Shown here piece by piece: positions 3,240-10,332 of a stretch of 11,051 bases of DNA. Positions within the stretch are counted from its first letter, which is position 1, and every line of letters starts with the position of its first letter. The notes below the pieces were generated by a model. It was not told the origin of the DNA. It ran no database searches and saw only the letters and a program-made list of their open reading frames with translations. The stretch spans positions 1 to 11,051 of IMG/VR virus record IMGVR_UViG_2671180296_000007; one strand, given 5' to 3'. The translations under genes and the position numbers were made by a program. The stretch comes from a virus (lineage: Duplodnaviria; Heunggongvirae; Uroviricota; Caudoviricetes).

Positions 3240-3699
3240 CACCCGTCCGGACGCAGCCGCCGAAGCTATCAGAACGCTGATGCACGCGCTGATTAATATT
3301 TCTGTTATCGCAGACATGGCGCATAAACACGCCACCAGCGAAACAGAATATGCCGGGGCTTTCGTTCCTCACTCACTGGCTGTTATGCAATTTAGTGCTG
3401 ATATGGCACTGAATGAGGCTAAAGCCATCCTGATTGCTGATTGTGAAAATGGGGGGGTTATGCGTGATGATCGTTTTAATGCCCTGAAACAGGAATTTTC
3501 CGGCGTATCTGATGATGCGAGTGATGCGCTTTCGTCAATATCCGAACTGATAAGAGCGGCCTTTTTCTTACTTGGCACGAAAGAAAATAAAACAACGGGG
3601 TTTGATGTACTAAATATCACCGCTGATTATGCGGAATATGTGGCAGAAGTCGATTTAAGAAAAATCCCGAATTGTCGCGGCATTAATAACGCTTCTTGA
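3229..3699 (+). CDS. Hypothetical protein (156 aa)
   Basis: ATG 3229 preceded by AGGAGG (3217-3222) with a 6-nt spacer; overlaps the end of the upstream gene by 11 nt, suggesting one operon. Acidic, alanine-rich. No family recognised. Confidence 0.6.
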   Translation: MCNNTRPDAAAEAIRTLMHALINISVIADMAHKHATSETEYAGAFVPHSLAVMQFSADMALNEAKAILIADCENGGVMRDDRFNALKQEFSGVSDDASDALSSISELIRAAFFLLGTKENKTTGFDVLNITADYAEYVAEVDLRKIPNCRGINNAS

Positions 3700-3777
3700 G
3701 CCTGTAATAAATGAATCGCAGGAAATAGAAACATTGCACGACAGATATAAAGAACAGCACACCGGAGAATAAAAATA

Positions 3778-4077
3778 ATGAAACTTAAATATTCTGGCTT
3801 AACTGCCAGTGGCAACACTCACCCTAAATTTACGCGCGGTGATATTTACCGCGACCAGTACGGCGGCACGGTAATGATTAAGGGCGTGGCGGGACGGTGC
3901 GTAACTTACCGCCGTGAAGGTTACGAATATGATTGCGTGATGCCTGTTTATCAGTTCCGGCGTGATTTTTCTCTGGTACAGGCAGCGCCCCGCAGTAAAC
4001 CAACCAGCAGGGAGAAAGCACGCGCCAATATTCAGAAGATGAAAACCATGATTAAAGGATTCAGGGGTAAAAAATGA
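3778..4077 (+). CDS. Hypothetical small protein (99 aa), translationally coupled to the primase
   Basis: GGAG 3762-3765 upstream of ATG 3778. The stop overlaps the primase start in an ATGA motif (4074-4077). Confidence 0.6.
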   Translation: MKLKYSGLTASGNTHPKFTRGDIYRDQYGGTVMIKGVAGRCVTYRREGYEYDCVMPVYQFRRDFSLVQAAPRSKPTSREKARANIQKMKTMIKGFRGKK

Positions 4078-5828
4078 AACTGGCACCGAACGTAAAACAG
4101 CAGTCACGCGGCATAAAACACAAAGAAACAGAAGTCATTATTTTTGCGGGTAGTGATGCCTGGTCACACGCGAAACAATGGCAGGAACATGATGCGCGTA
4201 TGGCCGGAGATAATGAGCCTCCTGTGTGGCTTGGGGAGCAGCAGCTATCCGAACTGGATAATCTGCAAATTGTGCCGGAAGGCCGAAAATCAGCACGCAT
4301 ATACAGGGCCGGATATCTTGCGCCAGTAATGATAAAGGCGATTGGCCAGAAGCTGGCGGCGGCAGGCGTACAGGATGCAAATTTTTACCCTGATGGTATG
4401 CACGGTCAGAAGGTGGAGAACTGGAGCGAATATCTGGCCCGTGAGCGCCAGAATCTTTCTGATGGTCTGGTCATTGAGCTTCCGGTAATGCAAAAGGCGC
4501 AACTTTCGCAGATGGCGGACAGTGAGCGCGCACAGATGCTTGCTGGTCGATTTGATGGCGTTTGTGTGCATCCGGAAAGTGAAATCGTTCACGTATGGCG
4601 CGGCGGGGTATGGTGTCCGGTCAGCACAATGGAACTTAGCCGCGAAATGGTGGCGATCTATTCAGAGCACAGGGCCACTTTCAGCAAGCGCGTAATCAAT
4701 AACGCCGTGGAAGCGTTAAAAGTTATTGCCGAACCAATGGGCGAGCCGTCCGGCGATTTGTTGCCGTTCGCCAATGGTGCGCTTGACCTGAAAACGGGGG
4801 AATTTTCCCCGCACACGCCGGAGAACTGGATCACCACGCACAACGGCATTGAGTACACGCCACCAGCACCTGGGGAGAACATCCGCGATAACGCGCCAAA
4901 CTTTCATAAATGGCTTGAGCACGCAGCCGGAAAAGACCCGCGCAAGATGATGCGTATATGTGCCGCGCTGTACATGATTATGGCGAACCGGTACGACTGG
5001 CAGATGTTTATTGAGGCCACCGGAGACGGCGGGAGCGGTAAAAGTACATTCACGCACATAGCCAGCCTTCTGGCAGGGAAACAGAACACGGTGAGCGCGG
5101 AGATGACATCGCTTGATGATGCTGGTGGACGTGCGCAGGTTGTCGGGAGTCGTCTTATCGTCCTGGCTGACCAGCCGAAATATACAGGCGAAGGAACGGG
5201 CATCAAGAAAATCACGGGCGGCGACCCCGTGGAAATAAACCCGAAATATGAGAAGCGTTTTACGGCGGTAATCAGGGCGGTGGTGCTGGCTACCAACAAT
5301 AACCCGATGATATTCACCGAACGGGCCGGAGGTGTGTCACGTCGTCGCGTAATTTTCCGTTTCGACAATATCGTCAGTGAGGCCGAAAAAGACAGGGAGC
5401 TACCGGAAAAGATTGCGGCTGAAATCCCTGTCATTATCCGCCGATTGCTGGCGAACTTTACCGACCCTGAGAAGGCACGGGCTTTACTACTGGAACAGCG
5501 TGACGGTGATGAAGCACTGGCAATAAAGCAACAGACGGATCCGGTTATTGAGTTTTGCCAGTTCCTGAATTTTCTGGAGGAAGCGCGCGGCCTGATGATG
5601 GGTGGCGGTGGTGATTCAGTGAAGTACACGACCAGGAACAGCCTTTATCGCGTCTATCTGGCGTTTATGGCGTACGCAGGCAGGAGCAAACCGCTAAACG
5701 TAAATGACTTTGGCAAGGCTATGAAGCCAGCCGCGAAAGTTTACGGACATGAATATATTACGCGGAAAGTTAAGGGAGTAACGCAGACTAACGCAATAAC
5801 AACAGACGAGTGCGACGCGTTTTTATAA
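4074..5828 (+). CDS. DNA primase/helicase, P4-alpha C-terminal type (D5_N-like domain plus SF3 P-loop NTPase)
   Basis: 584 aa. Walker A GDGGSGKST (about 5018-5046), Walker B-like LIVLADQP, downstream NNNP motif. Overall resemblance to phage/plasmid primase P4-family C-terminal domain proteins (PICI pri-rep type). Confidence 0.85.
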   Translation: MKLAPNVKQQSRGIKHKETEVIIFAGSDAWSHAKQWQEHDARMAGDNEPPVWLGEQQLSELDNLQIVPEGRKSARIYRAGYLAPVMIKAIGQKLAAAGVQDANFYPDGMHGQKVENWSEYLARERQNLSDGLVIELPVMQKAQLSQMADSERAQMLAGRFDGVCVHPESEIVHVWRGGVWCPVSTMELSREMVAIYSEHRATFSKRVINNAVEALKVIAEPMGEPSGDLLPFANGALDLKTGEFSPHTPENWITTHNGIEYTPPAPGENIRDNAPNFHKWLEHAAGKDPRKMMRICAALYMIMANRYDWQMFIEATGDGGSGKSTFTHIASLLAGKQNTVSAEMTSLDDAGGRAQVVGSRLIVLADQPKYTGEGTGIKKITGGDPVEINPKYEKRFTAVIRAVVLATNNNPMIFTERAGGVSRRRVIFRFDNIVSEAEKDRELPEKIAAEIPVIIRRLLANFTDPEKARALLLEQRDGDEALAIKQQTDPVIEFCQFLNFLEEARGLMMGGGGDSVKYTTRNSLYRVYLAFMAYAGRSKPLNVNDFGKAMKPAAKVYGHEYITRKVKGVTQTNAITTDECDAFL

Positions 5829-5839
5829 TTTTTTGTAAT

Positions 5840-6070
5840 TGCTGTCTACCCTGTCTACCTGAGTAAAGAAAAATACATTTAATTCAGTGCATTAAGTTAT
5901 GTAGATAGCCTTTTTTTACTATCTACCCACTATCTACCCTCTCTACCTGATTTTACCTGAATCAGACAGGGAGGTAGACACGGGGTAGATAGTGGATAAA
6001 AGCACTCTACCCCGCTGAAAGCCGCGCCATTACTGGCATGAGGGCCACTAAGGTAGATAAGGTAGACAAG
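5840..6070. repeat. Iteron array / putative origin of replication
   Basis: Hexamer core TCTACC on + at 5845, 5854, 5922, 5933, 5942 and 6006. Its complement GGTAGA at 5973, 5984, 6052 and 6061. Arms form an imperfect inverted repeat (ccactatctacc 5927-5938 versus ggtagatagtgg 5984-5995). AT-rich stretch 5872-5920 and a DnaA-box-like TTATCCACT (complement of 5991-5999). Located immediately downstream of the primase gene. Confidence 0.6.
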
Positions 6071-6116
6071 GGGAGGCACAACTCAAAACTTTTTAAACGA
6101 GGGGGTAAAAATAAAT

Positions 6117-6395
6117 ATGCACACTTCAGGGAAATTTAATAAATCACTCAAAAAACGCAGAGACAGAACAGAACCGAAATATCGCGCGTTAGACATGACA
6201 GAGCACGCTTTAAAGGTGGCAATCAGAACGATAGACCGCCACGCGGGGGAAGGATACGCGAAAGCACATCCCGACCTGATAAGCGCATTCATGACCACGA
6301 CGGCGGCAAATTTTGCCACGCTGACAGAGCGGGAGATTGCCGAAGCGGAACAGGTAACAACAATCAACGTTAAAACCGGAGAGGTGGAATCATGA
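6117..6395 (+). CDS. Hypothetical protein (92 aa)
   Basis: GAGGGGG upstream of ATG 6117. Stop overlaps the ssb start (ATGA at 6392-6395). No family recognised. Confidence 0.55.
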   Translation: MHTSGKFNKSLKKRRDRTEPKYRALDMTEHALKVAIRTIDRHAGEGYAKAHPDLISAFMTTTAANFATLTEREIAEAEQVTTINVKTGEVES

Positions 6396-6814
6396 CAGCA
6401 CAGATAGCCGCTTACGGGCGGCTGGTGGACGACCCGCAGGTAAAACAGACCAGCAAGGGCACACCGATGACGCTGGCGCGTATGGCGGTCCCCCTTCCGT
6501 GCAGCCAGGCAGATGACGGAACGGCGACGATGTGGTTATCCGTCCTGGCATTTGGCAGACAGGCCGAAGCACTGGAAAGGCACCGCAAGGGTGAACTCCT
6601 GAGCGTGGCGGGTAACATGCAGATCAGCCAGTGGACTGGGCAGAACGGAGAAACGCGGCAGGGCTGGCAGGTTATCGCAGACAGTGTAATCAGTGCGCGA
6701 ACGGCGCGACTGGGCGGCAAAAAAGGTCAACAGGGCCAGGCTACTGACGCGCTGAACAGGGCAAAACAACAGGCGGGGAATGATGATCCGTACGGGGATA
6801 ACATACCGTTTTAA
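6392..6814 (+). CDS. ssb: Single-stranded DNA-binding protein (SSB-like OB fold)
   Basis: 140 aa. Pattern GRLVDDPQVKQT..G...LARMAV...W..VLAFGRQAE......KGELLSVAG.....W....G..R follows the SSB OB-fold signature. Gly/Gln-rich linker and C-terminal DDPYGDNIPF, resembling the acidic ...DDDIPF tip of E. coli SSB. Confidence 0.8.
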   Translation: MTAQIAAYGRLVDDPQVKQTSKGTPMTLARMAVPLPCSQADDGTATMWLSVLAFGRQAEALERHRKGELLSVAGNMQISQWTGQNGETRQGWQVIADSVISARTARLGGKKGQQGQATDALNRAKQQAGNDDPYGDNIPF

Positions 6815-6829
6815 GCGACGAGTGACAGA

Positions 6830-6852
6830 AGCCGGAGCAATCCGGCTTTTTT
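6830..6852 (+). terminator. Rho-independent terminator
   Basis: Stem agccgga / tccggct with a GCAA loop followed by TTTTTT, 16 nt after the ssb stop. Confidence 0.6.
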
Positions 6853-6900
6853 ACGGGTCCTCCTAGCGGGGTGGGCCTGAACACGGGGCGGGAGGCGCGG
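6853..6900 (+). other. Degenerate cos-like sequence (cosQ-like ACGGGTCCT plus mutated cosN)
   Basis: acgggtcctcctagcggggtgggcctgaacacggggcgggaggcgcgg parallels the intact cos at 9294-9343 (acgggtcctttccggcatatggacctgttacggggcggcgacctcgcgcg). The 12-nt cohesive-end core is altered (GGGCGGGAGGCG versus GGGCGGCGACCT). Confidence 0.4.
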
Positions 6901-7032
6901 AAAAAAGCGCATTTTTGTGATTTTATCGTCATCATCATCATGAGCGTAATTTATTGTTTTTAATTGTTTTGATGCAAAAAAGATGATGTTTGTGGTTAAT
7001 TTTTGTTCGACATCTTTGCAGGCAGATAAAAA

Positions 7033-7069
7033 AGCCCGATAAGGTCAGAGGTGGCTTATCGGGCTTTTG
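7033..7069. terminator. Bidirectional terminator-like hairpin
   Basis: Stem agcccgataag (7033-7043) / cttatcgggct (7055-7065) flanked by an A-run upstream and a T-run downstream. Confidence 0.5.
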
Positions 7070-7100
7070 CATATGAGGCTTTTTGGTGCACTGACACACA

Positions 7101-7198
7101 TGATCGGGATCATCATTTCATAATTTGCAACACAACTCAACATCATTGCATAAAATGCAATCATGATTATAATCATAACTGGATGAACATCCAGTTAT
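7101..7198 (+). promoter_or_regulatory. Near-consensus sigma70-like promoter with nested palindromic operators upstream of the capsid operon
   Basis: -35 TTGCAT (7146-7151), 16-bp spacer, -10 TATAAT (7168-7173). Palindromes: TGATCggGATCA (7101-7112), TTGCATaaaATGCAA (7146-7160), ATGATTATAATCAT (7163-7176), and a perfect 11-2-11 ATAACTGGATGaaCATCCAGTTAT (7175-7198) over the predicted transcription start. Confidence 0.5.
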
Positions 7199-7229
7199 GA
7201 TTTTTTAAGTCAAAGAGGAATTTCTTACT

Positions 7230-7436
7230 ATGGCTGAAGAGAAAAAAGGCGGTGTTTCGGTGTACATAAGCCCCGAAATCGTGGAGGTGCTCAAGCAGCG
7301 CCACAAAAAAAACTATGAGGCTGGCGTGGCGGCTGGACTGGATCCGCTGATGACGCCGGAGCCGTCGATAGGTTCACTTGTACGCTCTTATTTACTTGCG
7401 GCGCTTGGGATGCATAAAAATTATGGGGGTGAATAA
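7230..7436 (+). CDS. Hypothetical small protein (68 aa), first gene of the capsid operon
   Basis: AAGAGGAA (7213-7220) upstream of ATG 7230. Stop overlaps the capsid gene start (TAATG). No family recognised. Confidence 0.55.
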   Translation: MAEEKKGGVSVYISPEIVEVLKQRHKKNYEAGVAAGLDPLMTPEPSIGSLVRSYLLAALGMHKNYGGE

Positions 7437-8491
7437 TGGCAGGCAAAGCAACGGCACTTAACACTAACCAGCTTTTCGCGTACCTGAATCGCGGGGATAT
7501 TGCGGAATTTAAATTCAGTCCGCTGTTTACCACGCTGTTTTTCCCGAACGTGGCGACATTCAACACCCAAAGCATCATGCTGGACACCCTGGACATTGAA
7601 GAGGTTACGATGTCGGCGTTTTGTTCGCCTATGGTGGGTAGTCAGGTCCAGCGCGATAAAGGGTACGAAACCAGCACGATTAAACCTGGATACATGAAGC
7701 CGAAGCACGAAATCGATCCAACGAAAACCATCATGCGTATGGCTGGAGAAGATCCGGCACAGCTTAATGACCCAACCTATCGCCGTATGCGCCTGATTAC
7801 TGGCAACATGCGCCGCCAGATAAACGCGATTAAAGCGCGCGTGGAATGGCTGGCGGTGAATGCGGTAACGACCGGAAAAAACATCATTGAGGGCGAAGGC
7901 ATAGAACGCTATGAAATCGACTGGAAGATACCGGAAAAAAACATCATAGAGCAGGCCAAAGGCCGTAAATGGTCCGAGCAGGACAAAGAAACCCACGATC
8001 CAATCTATGATATCGAGCTTTATGCGGATCAAGCAGGTTGCCCCTCCAACGTCATGATCATGGGCGCTGAGGTATGGCGAACGTTACGCAGCTTTAAAAA
8101 ATTCCGCGAACTGTACGATCTTTCCCGTGGTTCAGAGTCCTCCGCAGAGCTGGCCTGTAAAAACCTGGGCGAAGTGGTGAGCTTTAAAGGATATCTGGGC
8201 GATATTGCCCTTATCGTCTATTCCGGCAAATACACTGACAGCGACGGCACCGAAAAATATTTCCTTGAGCCTGATTTGCTGGTCCTGGGCAACACCAACA
8301 ATAAAGGGCTGGTGGCCTATGGTGCGATTATGGATCAGGAAGCGGTCAGAACGGGCGCAACGCAAAACATGTTTTACCCGAAAAACTGGATTGAGGACGG
8401 CGATCCGGCGATTGAGTACGTGCAGACGCACAGCGCACCGCAGCCGGTTCCGGCAGATATTCGCAAATTTGTTACCGTCAAAATTGGTTAA
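7436..8491 (+). CDS. Major capsid protein, lambda gpE family
   Basis: 351 aa. Matches to lambda E recalled from memory: FKFSPLFTTLFF (lambda FKFDPLFLRLFF), PGYMKPKHEI (PGYVKPKHEV), DPTYRRMR (DPAYRRRR), SFKGYLGDIALIVYSGKY (SYKGMYGDVAIVVYSGQY), YPKNW, and full-length collinearity. GGGGG RBS 6 nt upstream. Confidence 0.9.
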   Translation: MAGKATALNTNQLFAYLNRGDIAEFKFSPLFTTLFFPNVATFNTQSIMLDTLDIEEVTMSAFCSPMVGSQVQRDKGYETSTIKPGYMKPKHEIDPTKTIMRMAGEDPAQLNDPTYRRMRLITGNMRRQINAIKARVEWLAVNAVTTGKNIIEGEGIERYEIDWKIPEKNIIEQAKGRKWSEQDKETHDPIYDIELYADQAGCPSNVMIMGAEVWRTLRSFKKFRELYDLSRGSESSAELACKNLGEVVSFKGYLGDIALIVYSGKYTDSDGTEKYFLEPDLLVLGNTNNKGLVAYGAIMDQEAVRTGATQNMFYPKNWIEDGDPAIEYVQTHSAPQPVPADIRKFVTVKIG

Positions 8492-8502
8492 CGGGGGATT
8501 CT

Positions 8503-8838
8503 ATGGACACTCCATACATTGAGTTATTTGCAGGCAGTCAGCAGGTTGCCACGACGCTGGTACATTTTGCCGCTGATGCTGGCGTTATTCAGGAATTTAC
8601 CCCGCTGATGCTGGCGGACAATGGCGAATTTAAGCCGTGGGATGGTCAGGAATCTGGCAAGGCTGTTTATCTGACGGCGTATCCCGTGGACACGTCAACG
8701 CAGAAATCAGCACAGTGTTACAAGACGGGGATATTCAATATTGCCGCCGTTAACTGGCCTGAGAGCGTCGACACCGACGCGAAAAAATGTGCCGCCTTTG
8801 CGGGTTCTGGTGTATCTGTTCAGCCGCTGGCGCGATAA
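8503..8838 (+). CDS. Head decoration protein, lambda gpD family
   Basis: 111 aa. TPLMLADNGEFKPWDG and C-terminal YKTGIFNIAAVNWPESVDTDAKKCAAFAGSGVSV parallel lambda D (TPLMLDTSSRKLVAWDG ... [35 protein letters not shown]). Confidence 0.8.
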   Translation: MDTPYIELFAGSQQVATTLVHFAADAGVIQEFTPLMLADNGEFKPWDGQESGKAVYLTAYPVDTSTQKSAQCYKTGIFNIAAVNWPESVDTDAKKCAAFAGSGVSVQPLAR

Positions 8839-8851
8839 GCAGGGGGGAACG

Positions 8852-9265
8852 ATGGCAACGAATGAAAGTATCATGGCGCTACCGCTGGCGAGTAAATTTA
8901 AAGCTGAAGCGCGGGCAATGGCTGACAGATGTCTATCAACCTACGAAGCTATATATCAACTTAACAAACTGGAAGAACAGGACAAGCCGCGCGCTGATGC
9001 GATTATGTCGCTTCATGAATCTGACGACTATCAGCCGCTGTTACGTGCAATGGCAAACGTGCCTTGTATTGATGTTGATACGGCTAAAAACATCCTGAAC
9101 ATGACCATAGAACAGGAACGCCAGAAGGTTGCACCAGAGCTTACCGCAGCCTTTGAAAACTTTATGGACATGCACAGCCCACAAGCCGTATCAGCTGGCA
9201 TGGCATACGATGGCAGAAACCCGGGCGATGACGGCGACATTGATCGCATACTGAAAACCATCTGA
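8852..9265 (+). CDS. Hypothetical acidic protein (137 aa), last gene before cos
   Basis: The track ORF 8741-9265 is trimmed to ATG 8852, preceded by AGGGGGG. It is followed by a terminator and then cos. No family recognised. Confidence 0.55.
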   Translation: MATNESIMALPLASKFKAEARAMADRCLSTYEAIYQLNKLEEQDKPRADAIMSLHESDDYQPLLRAMANVPCIDVDTAKNILNMTIEQERQKVAPELTAAFENFMDMHSPQAVSAGMAYDGRNPGDDGDIDRILKTI

Positions 9266-9271
9266 GACAAG

Positions 9272-9293
9272 GCCGGAGAAATCCGGCTTTTTT
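9272..9293 (+). terminator. Rho-independent terminator
   Basis: Stem gccgga / tccggc with a GAAA loop followed by TTTTTT. Nearly identical to the terminator at 6830-6852. Confidence 0.6.
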
Positions 9294-9500
9294 GCGGGTC
9301 CTTTCCGGCATATGGACCTGTTACGGGGCGGCGACCTCGCGCGTTTTCACTATTTATGAAAATTTTTCGGGATCCATGTCCGGTTTCTCTGCAAGTTAAC
9401 CATATGAAAAATATAAAAACATGCTTTCCATGAACCGGACATGCGCAAAAAAACAGACACTAAAACCGGACATCGTACCCGTTAACCGGAAGTGTGCAAA
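9294..9500 (+). other. Lambda-type cos site, forward orientation (cosQ-like, cosN, candidate cosB)
   Basis: cosQ-like GGGTCCTTTCCGG (9296-9308). GTTACG then the 12-nt cohesive-end sequence GGGCGGCGACCT (9326-9337). Downstream TTTTCACTATTTATGAAAATTTTTCGG closely matches the lambda left end (CGCGGGTTTTCGCTATTTATGAAAATTTTCCGG). Candidate terminase-binding repeats AACCGGACAT at 9433, 9464 and 9484, with an inverted copy at 9374-9384. Confidence 0.8.
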
Positions 9501-9699
9501 AATCACACGCATTGCTGCGCGTGATTAACAATTTATCGGCTTTACTGTTCTGTATAGGCTGGGTGGCGTCATGCCGTAGCCGTTCTCCGTGCCAGCATGG
9601 AATAATCCGTAGTTACAGAGCGGTAAAGTTAAAAATCACTTTCTGTTACGCCATCAAATACGCGATACAACAACCATGTGTTTTTACAAAACCATTTGA

Positions 9700-9898
9700 T
9701 ATCATTGAATTTTTTCACATTAATGACATCAAAATACATCGTAAGGTTGTTGTATTTATTTTATTTTATTTTTACCTTACTTATCAATTAGATATACCAA
9801 ACAATTAAACAACAACCACCCCATCAAAAAATCTCATAAATAGCGAAAAACCGCGAGGTCGCCGCCCCGTAACGGGCCATAATTCCTGGAAGGACCCG
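9700..9898 (-). other. Second lambda-type cos site, inverted orientation (cosQ-like, cosN, different candidate cosB)
   Basis: On the minus strand: cgggtccttccagg ... gttacgGGGCGGCGACCTcgcggtttttcgctatttatga. The cosN core is the complement of 9856-9873. The inward-facing flank carries GGTTGTTGT-type repeats (minus-strand reading), not AACCGGACAT. Confidence 0.7.
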
Positions 9899-9931
9899 AC
9901 GACACCAGACTATCAGAACGATGGGGGCACA

Positions 9932-10213
9932 ATGACAGAAGCCGAACTACTGCGATTAATCCGTCGCGTTGCCGGAATCAGCCAGCAGGCTGACGAACAG
10001 GCCACGCAGCCGGACAGCGTGACCGCAGAAAATTATGTTCGTGTGGTTGCTGAGGTGATGCACCGTGATGGTATCCAGCTTAATGATGCGGATATGCGCG
10101 ACATACGGATCCGCGTTCTTGAAATGCTGGCCTACCGTCGCCGGATACAGACGTACAGGGAAAAAGCCAAAATAACGTACCAGTGGAAGAAGCCGGAGCG
10201 GTTACGGCGGTAA
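9932..10213 (+). CDS. Hypothetical protein (93 aa)
   Basis: GGGGG 5 nt upstream of ATG 9932. First ORF downstream of the cos region. No family recognised. Confidence 0.55.
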   Translation: MTEAELLRLIRRVAGISQQADEQATQPDSVTAENYVRVVAEVMHRDGIQLNDADMRDIRIRVLEMLAYRRRIQTYREKAKITYQWKKPERLRR

Positions 10214-10233
10214 CTTGCTGAAGTTAAAGCATA

Positions 10234-10332
10234 ATGCAAATTTGCACTCTGGCCTAACCCGTTAATATTTCAGCAAAGTGCAAATTTGCGTTCTGTAGCT
10301 GGTGGCTGGCAGAATGTAAATTTACATTCTGG
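10234..10332. repeat. Three tandem about 19-bp repeats, each containing a 12-bp palindrome
   Basis: aTGCAAATTTGCActctgg (10234-10252), gTGCAAATTTGCgttctg (10279-10296), aTGTAAATTTACAttctgg (10314-10332). They lie in a convergent intergenic region between the stops of the flanking genes. Confidence 0.6.

Follow-up and report, generated by a model that had tools for sequence, protein, structure and literature searches.

Why does a phage satellite with an inverted pair of lambda-type cos sites carry a third cos-like element between its ssb gene and its capsid operon? [quoted passage not shown] In the model island EcCICFT073 two lambda-type cos sites were reported, and its authors did not settle why more than one should be present in some PICIs. 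The DNA analysed here (11,051 nt in all, referred to as the window) holds three such elements, and the third had been read in the initial annotation as a decayed or deliberately inactivated cos.

The island and its lambda-type cos pair

Judged by its genes, the window is a PICI of the EcCICFT073 family. It carries an integrase, AlpA and a P4-type primase with an adjacent iteron origin (Pfam matches), then homologues of E-like capsid and D-like decoration proteins and an inverted pair of lambda-type cos sites, and its closest copies lie beside a tRNA. The genes and the cos pair are arranged as follows.

1-1242, tyrosine integrase
1757-1963, AlpA
4074-5828, P4/D5-type primase, with iterons directly after it
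6392-6814, SSB
7230-7436, 68-aa protein
7436-8491, lambda gpE-like capsid protein (PF03864, 2.7e-52)
8503-8838, gpD-like decoration protein (PF02924, 2.1e-18), with a 137-aa and a 93-aa protein after it (93-aa ORF at 9932-10213)
9272-9367, plus strand, lambda-type cos (terminator, cosQ, cosN GGGCGGCGACCT), in direct orientation relative to the third copy, partner of a 31-nt repeat and aligned to the lambda junction
9826-9898, minus strand, second lambda-type cos, inverted (inverted repeat I1, 73 nt, 82% complementary with 9295-9367)

Near-identical islands adjoin tRNA-Pro/yejM in E. coli MFDS1022581 and GB089, and a relative at 93-95% identity is present in Nissle 1917 and ATCC 25922. EcCICFT073 (CFT073 1,377,930-1,388,654) is 92-93% identical to the window in the primase-ssb region and in the capsid module. 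Across most of window 3657-9372, the islands of EcCICFT073 and Nissle match it at 92-95% of nucleotides. The annotation of the closest genomic copy (MFDS1022581, L001 10028-11081) gives a frameshift in the capsid gene, which is intact in the window. The iterons at 5842-6068 (CTGTCTACCC and GGTAGA repeats, direct and inverted) stand directly 3' of the primase gene, where the replication origin of a PICI is expected. Rfam matches above the gathering score were obtained on the plus strand at 2808-2884 (isrK Hfq-binding sRNA, 80 bits) and 2906-2993 (C4 antisense RNA, 73 bits), both in the icd-like region of the island. Just 3' of the 93-aa gene, a palindromic motif, (A/G)TGCAAATTTGC(A/G) with the variant TGTAAATTTACA, is repeated at intervals across 10211-10330, three copies in all, in what looks like an operator array. 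In several IMG/VR loci (L032, L051, L074, L076, L090, L091, L097, L118 and L126) islands of the window's family lie inside the large-terminase gene of a prophage, with TerS-TerL-integrase-primase on one side and the 93-aa gene followed by TerL on the other, a layout that fits the helper-embedded PICIs (PMC10111431).

The two lambda-type sites of the window (9295-9367 and 9826-9898) are the counterparts of cos1 and cos2 of EcCICFT073 (L007 32529-32605 and 33268-33340). The latter combine lambda-like cosQ and cosN (GGGCGGCGACCT) with an unusual, non-phage cosB that is read by a heterocomplex of Rpp (RppA) and the phage TerS (Nu1) (PMC6092414, PMC6739421). EcCICFT073 has no third cos and was transferred efficiently by lambda and phi80 (PMC6092414). 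Between the cos pair of the window, all that is left of RppA is a C-terminal remnant of 22 residues (9558-9623); the single ORF in this gap is unrelated to RppA, and no TerS is encoded in the window. The protein in the corresponding gap of EcCICFT073 matches RppC (PDB 6hlk) at 5e-31. The 93-aa ORF at 9932-10213 was considered as an Rpp and rejected: it has no PDB match, and RppA is the 144-aa protein encoded between the cos pair of EcCICFT073.

The segment between the inverted sites is a variable cassette (window 9295-9826; L007 32529-33340; L002 12434-13375). In EcCICFT073 it is occupied by rppA, in Nissle 1917 by a Nu1-like terS, and in the window by only the rppA remnant plus AT-rich DNA. 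Window 9295-9561 aligns to the opposite strand of EcCICFT073 at 94% identity, an inversion of the kind that recombination between the inverted cos sites would produce by flipping the cassette.

Anatomy and phage relatives of the third cos

The third element and the hairpins on either side of it, all on the plus strand, consist of the following parts.

6827-6852, intrinsic-terminator-like hairpin and T-run after ssb (RNA fold -15.4 kcal/mol, z -5.85)
6853-7027, indel segment of 175 nt holding the whole third cos, absent from EcCICFT073
6855-6861, cosQ heptamer GGGTCCT, identical in the lambda junction and invariant in 21 class-2 phage cos sequences
6882-6905, cosN region, with left arm CACGGGGCGG (6882-6891), variable core GAG (6892-6894) and right arm GCGCGGAAAAA (6895-6905)
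6906-7017, cosB-like region of class 2 (VT1-Sakai type), from an alignment of 46 unique sequences and cosB clustering; putative TerS binding site
6907-6941, phage-invariant cosB block GCGCATTTTTGTGATTTTATCGTCATCATCATCAT
6954-6963, phage-invariant cosB block TTGTTTTTAA
6976-6988, phage-invariant cosB block AAAAAAGATGATG
7000-7017, phage-invariant cosB block TTTTTGTTCGACATCTTT
7030-7068, second strong hairpin and right bound of the cos insert (-23 to -25 kcal/mol, z -4.2; inverted repeat I19)

The near-identity of the terminator and cosQ segment to 9272-9300, pointed out in the initial annotation, is real: 6831-6861 (GCCGGAGCAATCCGGCTTTTTTACGGGTCCT), made up of the hairpin of the terminator plus the heptamer of cosQ, has 29 of 31 positions in common with 9272-9302 (repeat family D8). 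GGGTCCT, which we take to be the lambda cosQ (bp 48473-48479), occurs exactly three times in the window, once per cos (6855, 9296 and, on the minus strand, 9891). The cosN motif ACGGGGCGG likewise occurs exactly three times (6883, 9323 and, on the minus strand, 9862), against an expectation of 0.18, and none of 200 shuffles reached three. The distance from the start of GGGTCCT to the start of ACGGGGCGG is 28 nt at the third cos and 27 nt at both lambda-type copies and in lambda. The proposal that the next segment parallels cosN with a changed core was borne out in part. The core does differ (GGGCGGGAGGCG in the third copy, GGGCGGCGACCT in the other two, so that the 12-nt cohesive end of lambda is not found here) and ACGGGGCGG stands at the lambda spacing, but the remainder of 6862-6935 resembles neither the lambda-type copies nor lambda to a significant extent. 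Local alignment gave z = 1.4-1.9, with 119-241 of 2000 dinucleotide shuffles scoring as well, and relatedness of the cosB region to these sites is thus at the level of shuffles. Because the similarity after cosQ is not significant, what connects the copies is the 31-mer together with the 9-mer at its fixed spacing.

In EcCICFT073 the same terminator hairpin follows perC, with no cos behind it. The terminator is there joined straight to the second hairpin (L007 30235-30270), which the two islands have in common (L007 30260-30305), and BLAST homology resumes at window 7028. The post-ssb hairpin recurs at 9268-9294, ahead of the lambda-type cos. A hairpin with T-run abuts cosQ in every context (window 6827-6854 and 9268-9295; L003 3487-3505; the right end of lambda, L140), and its sequence varies: AT-rich in lambda and Stx phages, one of two GC-rich hairpins in islands. 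This constant juxtaposition may be functional. Within the site, a 22-nt direct repeat was found (6901-6922 and 6976-6997). A scan for the IHF consensus placed a single site with one mismatch in the cosB-like region, at 6947-6959, with a window-wide count equal to chance; Rfam and tRNA scans gave no match at the third cos, and no promoter-like site was seen in the insert.

A search of phage genomes with 6815-6935 recovered VT1-Sakai, eight Stx2-converting phages, CP-1639 and 1720a-02 at 92-94% identity and mEp460-type phages at ~80%. Local alignment of the third cos with VT1-Sakai gave z = 36. In VT1-Sakai the match is located between Rz and the gene for a 158-aa protein that directly precedes the large terminase, which is the position of cos in lambda. 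The 158-aa protein belongs to DUF1441 (PF07278, 3.8e-48; PHROG 141, "terminase small subunit"). The TerL of this class has GpA_ATPase and GpA_nuclease domains and is 24% identical to lambda gpA; its TerS shows no detectable similarity to lambda Nu1. A likeness of GGCGGGAGGCGCGGAAAAAAGCGC to the 19-nt cohesive end of P2/186 was considered and dropped, the phage search having given only lambdoid phages of the DUF1441 class.

We collected ~140 cos sites of the DUF1441-class family by a pattern scan of IMG/VR. The phage context was always Rz, cos, a DUF1441 TerS 164-208 nt downstream, and TerL. The 46 unique sequences aligned for the window's subclass are collinear base for base from cosQ (6855) to 7017. 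Among 21 unique phage cos sequences, 122 of the 166 columns (6855-7017) are invariant and the window keeps 121 of them, or 100 of 101 when the 21 invariant columns fixed by the search pattern are set aside. At the 44 phage-variable columns the base of the window is one seen in phages in 41 cases. Its identity to the phage sites is 86-92%, inside the range among the phages themselves (84-100%). One change is private to the window, G to A at 6865, in a phage-invariant column.

The core of cosN is a segment that varies in sequence and length among the phages of the class (GCG, ACG, GCGG, GTCG and GAGCG). The GAG core of the window is identical to none of these; in IMG/VR it was found in island-sized contigs in 16 of 16 cases and never beside a phage terminase. 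Cores of 3-5 nt within one terminase family would imply cohesive ends of 10-12 nt if the nicks fall where they do in lambda, with a predicted 10 nt for the third cos. The nick positions of the third cos were likewise placed by analogy with lambda. Our literature search found no mapped DNA ends for phages with a DUF1441 TerS.

Clustering of cosB (140 nt downstream of cosN) gave five classes, with the window in class 2. In phages, class 2 is followed in 24 of 24 cases by a TerS 93-100% identical to VT1-Sakai H0025; identity of the phage TerS to that of VT1-Sakai is 62-78% in class 3 and 56-74% in class 4, and cosB class thus tracks TerS subtype. As far as its sequence can tell, then, the third element is a complete cos of the packaging class with DUF1441 TerS and gpA-type TerL. 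It is not a decayed lambda cos, because collinearity is full, the invariant columns are kept and the "changed core" falls within the phage-variable segment. The earlier reading as a decayed or inactivated cos is contradicted by the 92-94% identity to Stx phages (6848-6935), the z of 36 against VT1-Sakai and the 121 of 122 invariant columns. The extent first proposed, 6830-6900, does cover a cos-like element with cosQ and left cosN homologous to the other copies; homology to phage cos spans 6853-7017.

The likeness to the DUF1441/gpA-type phages (VT1-Sakai/Sp15, Stx2 LC5678xx, CP-1639 and 1720a-02) therefore amounts to 165 collinear nt at 86-94% identity and takes in cosQ with its spacing, the two arms of cosN and all invariant blocks of cosB; mEp460, mEp213 and Fels-1 are more distant relatives. 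Unlike in these phages, the site belongs to a satellite and is not followed by terminase genes, its GAG core is unseen in phages, and their AT-rich upstream hairpin is replaced by the GC-rich terminator of the island. Phage lambda (Nu1/gpA) has the same cosQ heptamer, a cosQ-cosN spacing within 1 nt, the ACGGGGCGG left arm, a hairpin with T-run abutting cosQ and a TerL in the same Pfam families, whereas it is unrelated throughout cosB and in the right half of cosN (TerL 24% identical, TerS without detectable similarity). A common cosQ side and left cosN arm, next to a right half that differs, would fit homologous TerL and unrelated TerS proteins in lambda and the DUF1441 class.

Distribution and possible exchange of the post-ssb cos

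The capsid-operon leader of the window's island type is present in 597 of 5,426 complete E. coli genomes and is joined to the third cos in 169 of the 597 (~28%), leaving ~72% without the site. The 169-nt site was found at 95-99% identity in 158 genomes and at 80-90% in ~350 further genomes, largely as O157:H7 prophages. In 15 of the best 17 matches among genomes carrying the site there was no second class-2 cos, that is, no resident matching helper. Since EcCICFT073 does not have the third site, only two cos sites appear in the literature; the third is unmentioned in both reports on that island (PMC6092414, PMC6739421).

Nucleotide diversity among 18 unique islands is 0.015 in the third cos, compared with third-codon-position values of 0.10 (ssb), 0.18 (68-aa gene) and 0.11 (capsid gene), which makes the cos ~7-fold lower. 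The flanking non-coding elements are conserved to a similar degree, and because of this a recent spread or sweep instead of selection is possible. Variants of cosQ occur in 3 of the 18 islands; in the window's own group, window included, cosQ is canonical in 17 of 21 copies of the site. A metagenome scan returned 13 contigs, with the site internal in all and none ending there. The IMG/VR fragment L020 starts 2 nt before CACGGGG, but the stored piece is incomplete at both ends and says nothing about physical DNA ends.

Islands with a different capsid module, in which ClpP is fused to the major capsid protein (ClpP-MCP), carry a cos of the DUF1441 family 489 nt after the ssb start and a second copy of it, in direct repeat, after the capsid gene. 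This post-ssb slot (489 nt after the ssb start) is occupied in islands of either capsid-module type and holds class 1, 2, 3 or 4 depending on the island; class 1 was seen only in islands. The lineages with an occupied slot have primases 43-99% identical. Ten loci contain both the post-ssb and the post-capsid cos of one island, and in each of the ten the two differ in cosB class. The left halves of the post-ssb copies share an island-specific signature (CCTGGCGGGG) across classes 2 and 3, and homology of the window to the ClpP-MCP islands breaks within the third cos (~6956) and resumes past the outer cos (~9919-9931); the shared left half and the break suggest, at the level of sequence, that exchange took place near cosN. 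Terminase-cut cos ends stimulate recombination in lambda. Shuffling of modules at cos, as the initial annotation proposed, is supported in part by this break and by the different capsid module that ClpP-MCP islands carry between their post-ssb and post-capsid cos. The simpler expectation of a capsid module present or absent at these boundaries did not hold among the related islands compared: none simply without the module was found, and EcCICFT073 holds the same capsid module without the third cos.

Among the post-ssb class-3 copies of ClpP-MCP islands, 14 of 19 have a mutated cosQ, GTAGGTACTCC (AGGTACT) instead of GCGGGTCCTCC, next to a phage-like cosB, and these loci (L036, L059, L074, L079, L090, L135 and others) have the island-only cosN cores AGGG, GAGG and GAGGG. 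Such a site could be a non-terminating or initiation-only cos.

A proposed packaging address for a second helper class

We lean, by a small degree, towards the reading that the third cos is a working cos for a second class of helper, located after the terminator of ssb and ahead of the capsid operon. When a class-2 helper replicates in the cell, its own TerS would bind the phage-like cosB (6906-7017), and its TerL would then nick cosN at about 6885-6895. Island concatemers would be packaged rightward to the next copy of the same cos, whose cosQ would support the terminating cut. An island protein such as Rpp would be unneeded, because cosB is of the phage's own type. Together with the lambda/phi80-type inverted pair (9295-9898), the third cos would give the island two addresses and a wider set of helpers, with packaging signals in one island probably serving helper phages of two types. 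This second address may matter more here, in an island that encodes neither Rpp nor TerS: because no TerS and only the 22-residue RppA remnant are present, the phage-type cosB may be the best handle that the island has on a terminase. The intact phage-invariant blocks, the low diversity of the site and a slot kept across divergent lineages speak for a working cos. Against it count the island-only GAG core, the change at 6865, the cosQ variants in 3 of 18 islands, the many islands without the site, the usual lack of a matching resident prophage, the lack of contigs ending at the site, and the transfer of EcCICFT073 without it.

Some of these observations would be expected if the third cos were instead a passenger from island-phage or island-island exchange at cos, intact in sequence and unused in packaging of the island. 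The homology break inside the site, with resumption just past the outer cos, and the island-specific left half (CCTGGCGGGG) across two cosB classes are what exchange near cosN should leave behind; such a relic would also account for a site that most islands with the same capsid module do not have, whose GAG core is unseen in phages and whose matching prophage is usually not resident. We nevertheless regard it as rather unlikely, given the retention of 121 of 122 phage-invariant columns, a diversity 7-fold below that of flanking third codon positions, and a slot filled in divergent lineages by four cosB classes, three of them also found at phage cos, a pattern hard to obtain by neglect alone. 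An altered cosN core could also mean that the element is a TerS-binding site and less than a full cos, either initiation-only or a terminase-titrating decoy that interferes with the helper. PICIs are known to interfere with helper packaging via TerS (PMC6739421), island-only cores (GAG, AGGG, GAGG) do stand beside phage-like cosB, and 14 of 19 class-3 post-ssb copies in ClpP-MCP islands combine a mutated cosQ (AGGTACT) with a kept cosB. In the window's group, however, cosQ is canonical in 17 of 21 copies, and the core segment varies among phages too, which leaves this explanation improbable.

Two further explanations fare worse. The site lies between two strong hairpins in an intergenic region conserved as a whole, and it might be a transcriptional spacer that insulates replication from the capsid operon, its resemblance to cos being incidental. 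But EcCICFT073 has both hairpins without the 175-nt insert, and the insert, with neither a promoter-like site nor an Rfam match, has phage and island cos regions as its only homologues; we consider a spacer very improbable. The least credible proposal is that the island's own lambda-type cos was copied and that the copy decayed or was deliberately inactivated. The terminator-cosQ 31-mer (29/31) and ACGGGGCGG are indeed common to the lambda-type copies, but past cosQ the similarity to them falls to shuffle level (z 1.4-1.9, as compared with 36 for VT1-Sakai), and the element is collinear with phage cos over 165 nt.

The working-cos reading for a second helper class can be set beside known satellites. 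A satellite with a helper-type cos is a known device (EcCICFT073, SaPIbov5 and 11capE). EcCICFT073 is of the same island family, and its cos1/cos2 are of a helper type, so that the helper terminase packages the island (PMC6092414, PMC6739421); the third site differs from them in the core of cosN and in its cosB, which is of phage type and belongs to the DUF1441-TerS class, and EcCICFT073 does not have it. SaPIbov5 has a cos identical to that of its helper and no satellite TerS (PMC6092414). The helper-embedded PICI 11capE uses the helper's own cos, with 258 bp at 90% shared with the helper and, again, no satellite TerS (PMC10111431). SaPIbov5 and 11capE were described with a single packaging specificity, whereas in the window a second specificity would stand beside the lambda-type pair. 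In our literature search we found no PICI cos of the DUF1441 class and no single island with cos sites for two terminase families; a search on DUF1441 as a terminase and on a third or dual-specificity PICI cos returned nothing relevant.

More tentatively, and with some doubt, the PICI family may keep a fixed post-ssb "address slot" in which the cosB half has been swapped repeatedly, at or near cosN, among at least four classes, with a cos of another class after the capsid module. Each island would then be addressed to two terminase specificities, in the window those of Stx-type and of lambda-type phages.

If the third site works, the islands of ~170 of 5,426 complete E. coli genomes would signal to two unrelated families of small terminases, and this two-family subset includes the Nissle 1917 and ATCC 25922 lineages. 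The helper range would be wider, and commensal and probiotic strains would be linked to Stx-type phages as possible vehicles. The retargeting of a satellite would have a simple, testable picture, the swap of the cosB half of a cos, and the cosQ mutants and 3-5 nt cosN cores would form a natural set of cos variants for work on gpA-type terminases. Should the address-slot reading also be true, Stx-type phages of pathogenic E. coli could mobilise the islands of strains like Nissle 1917.
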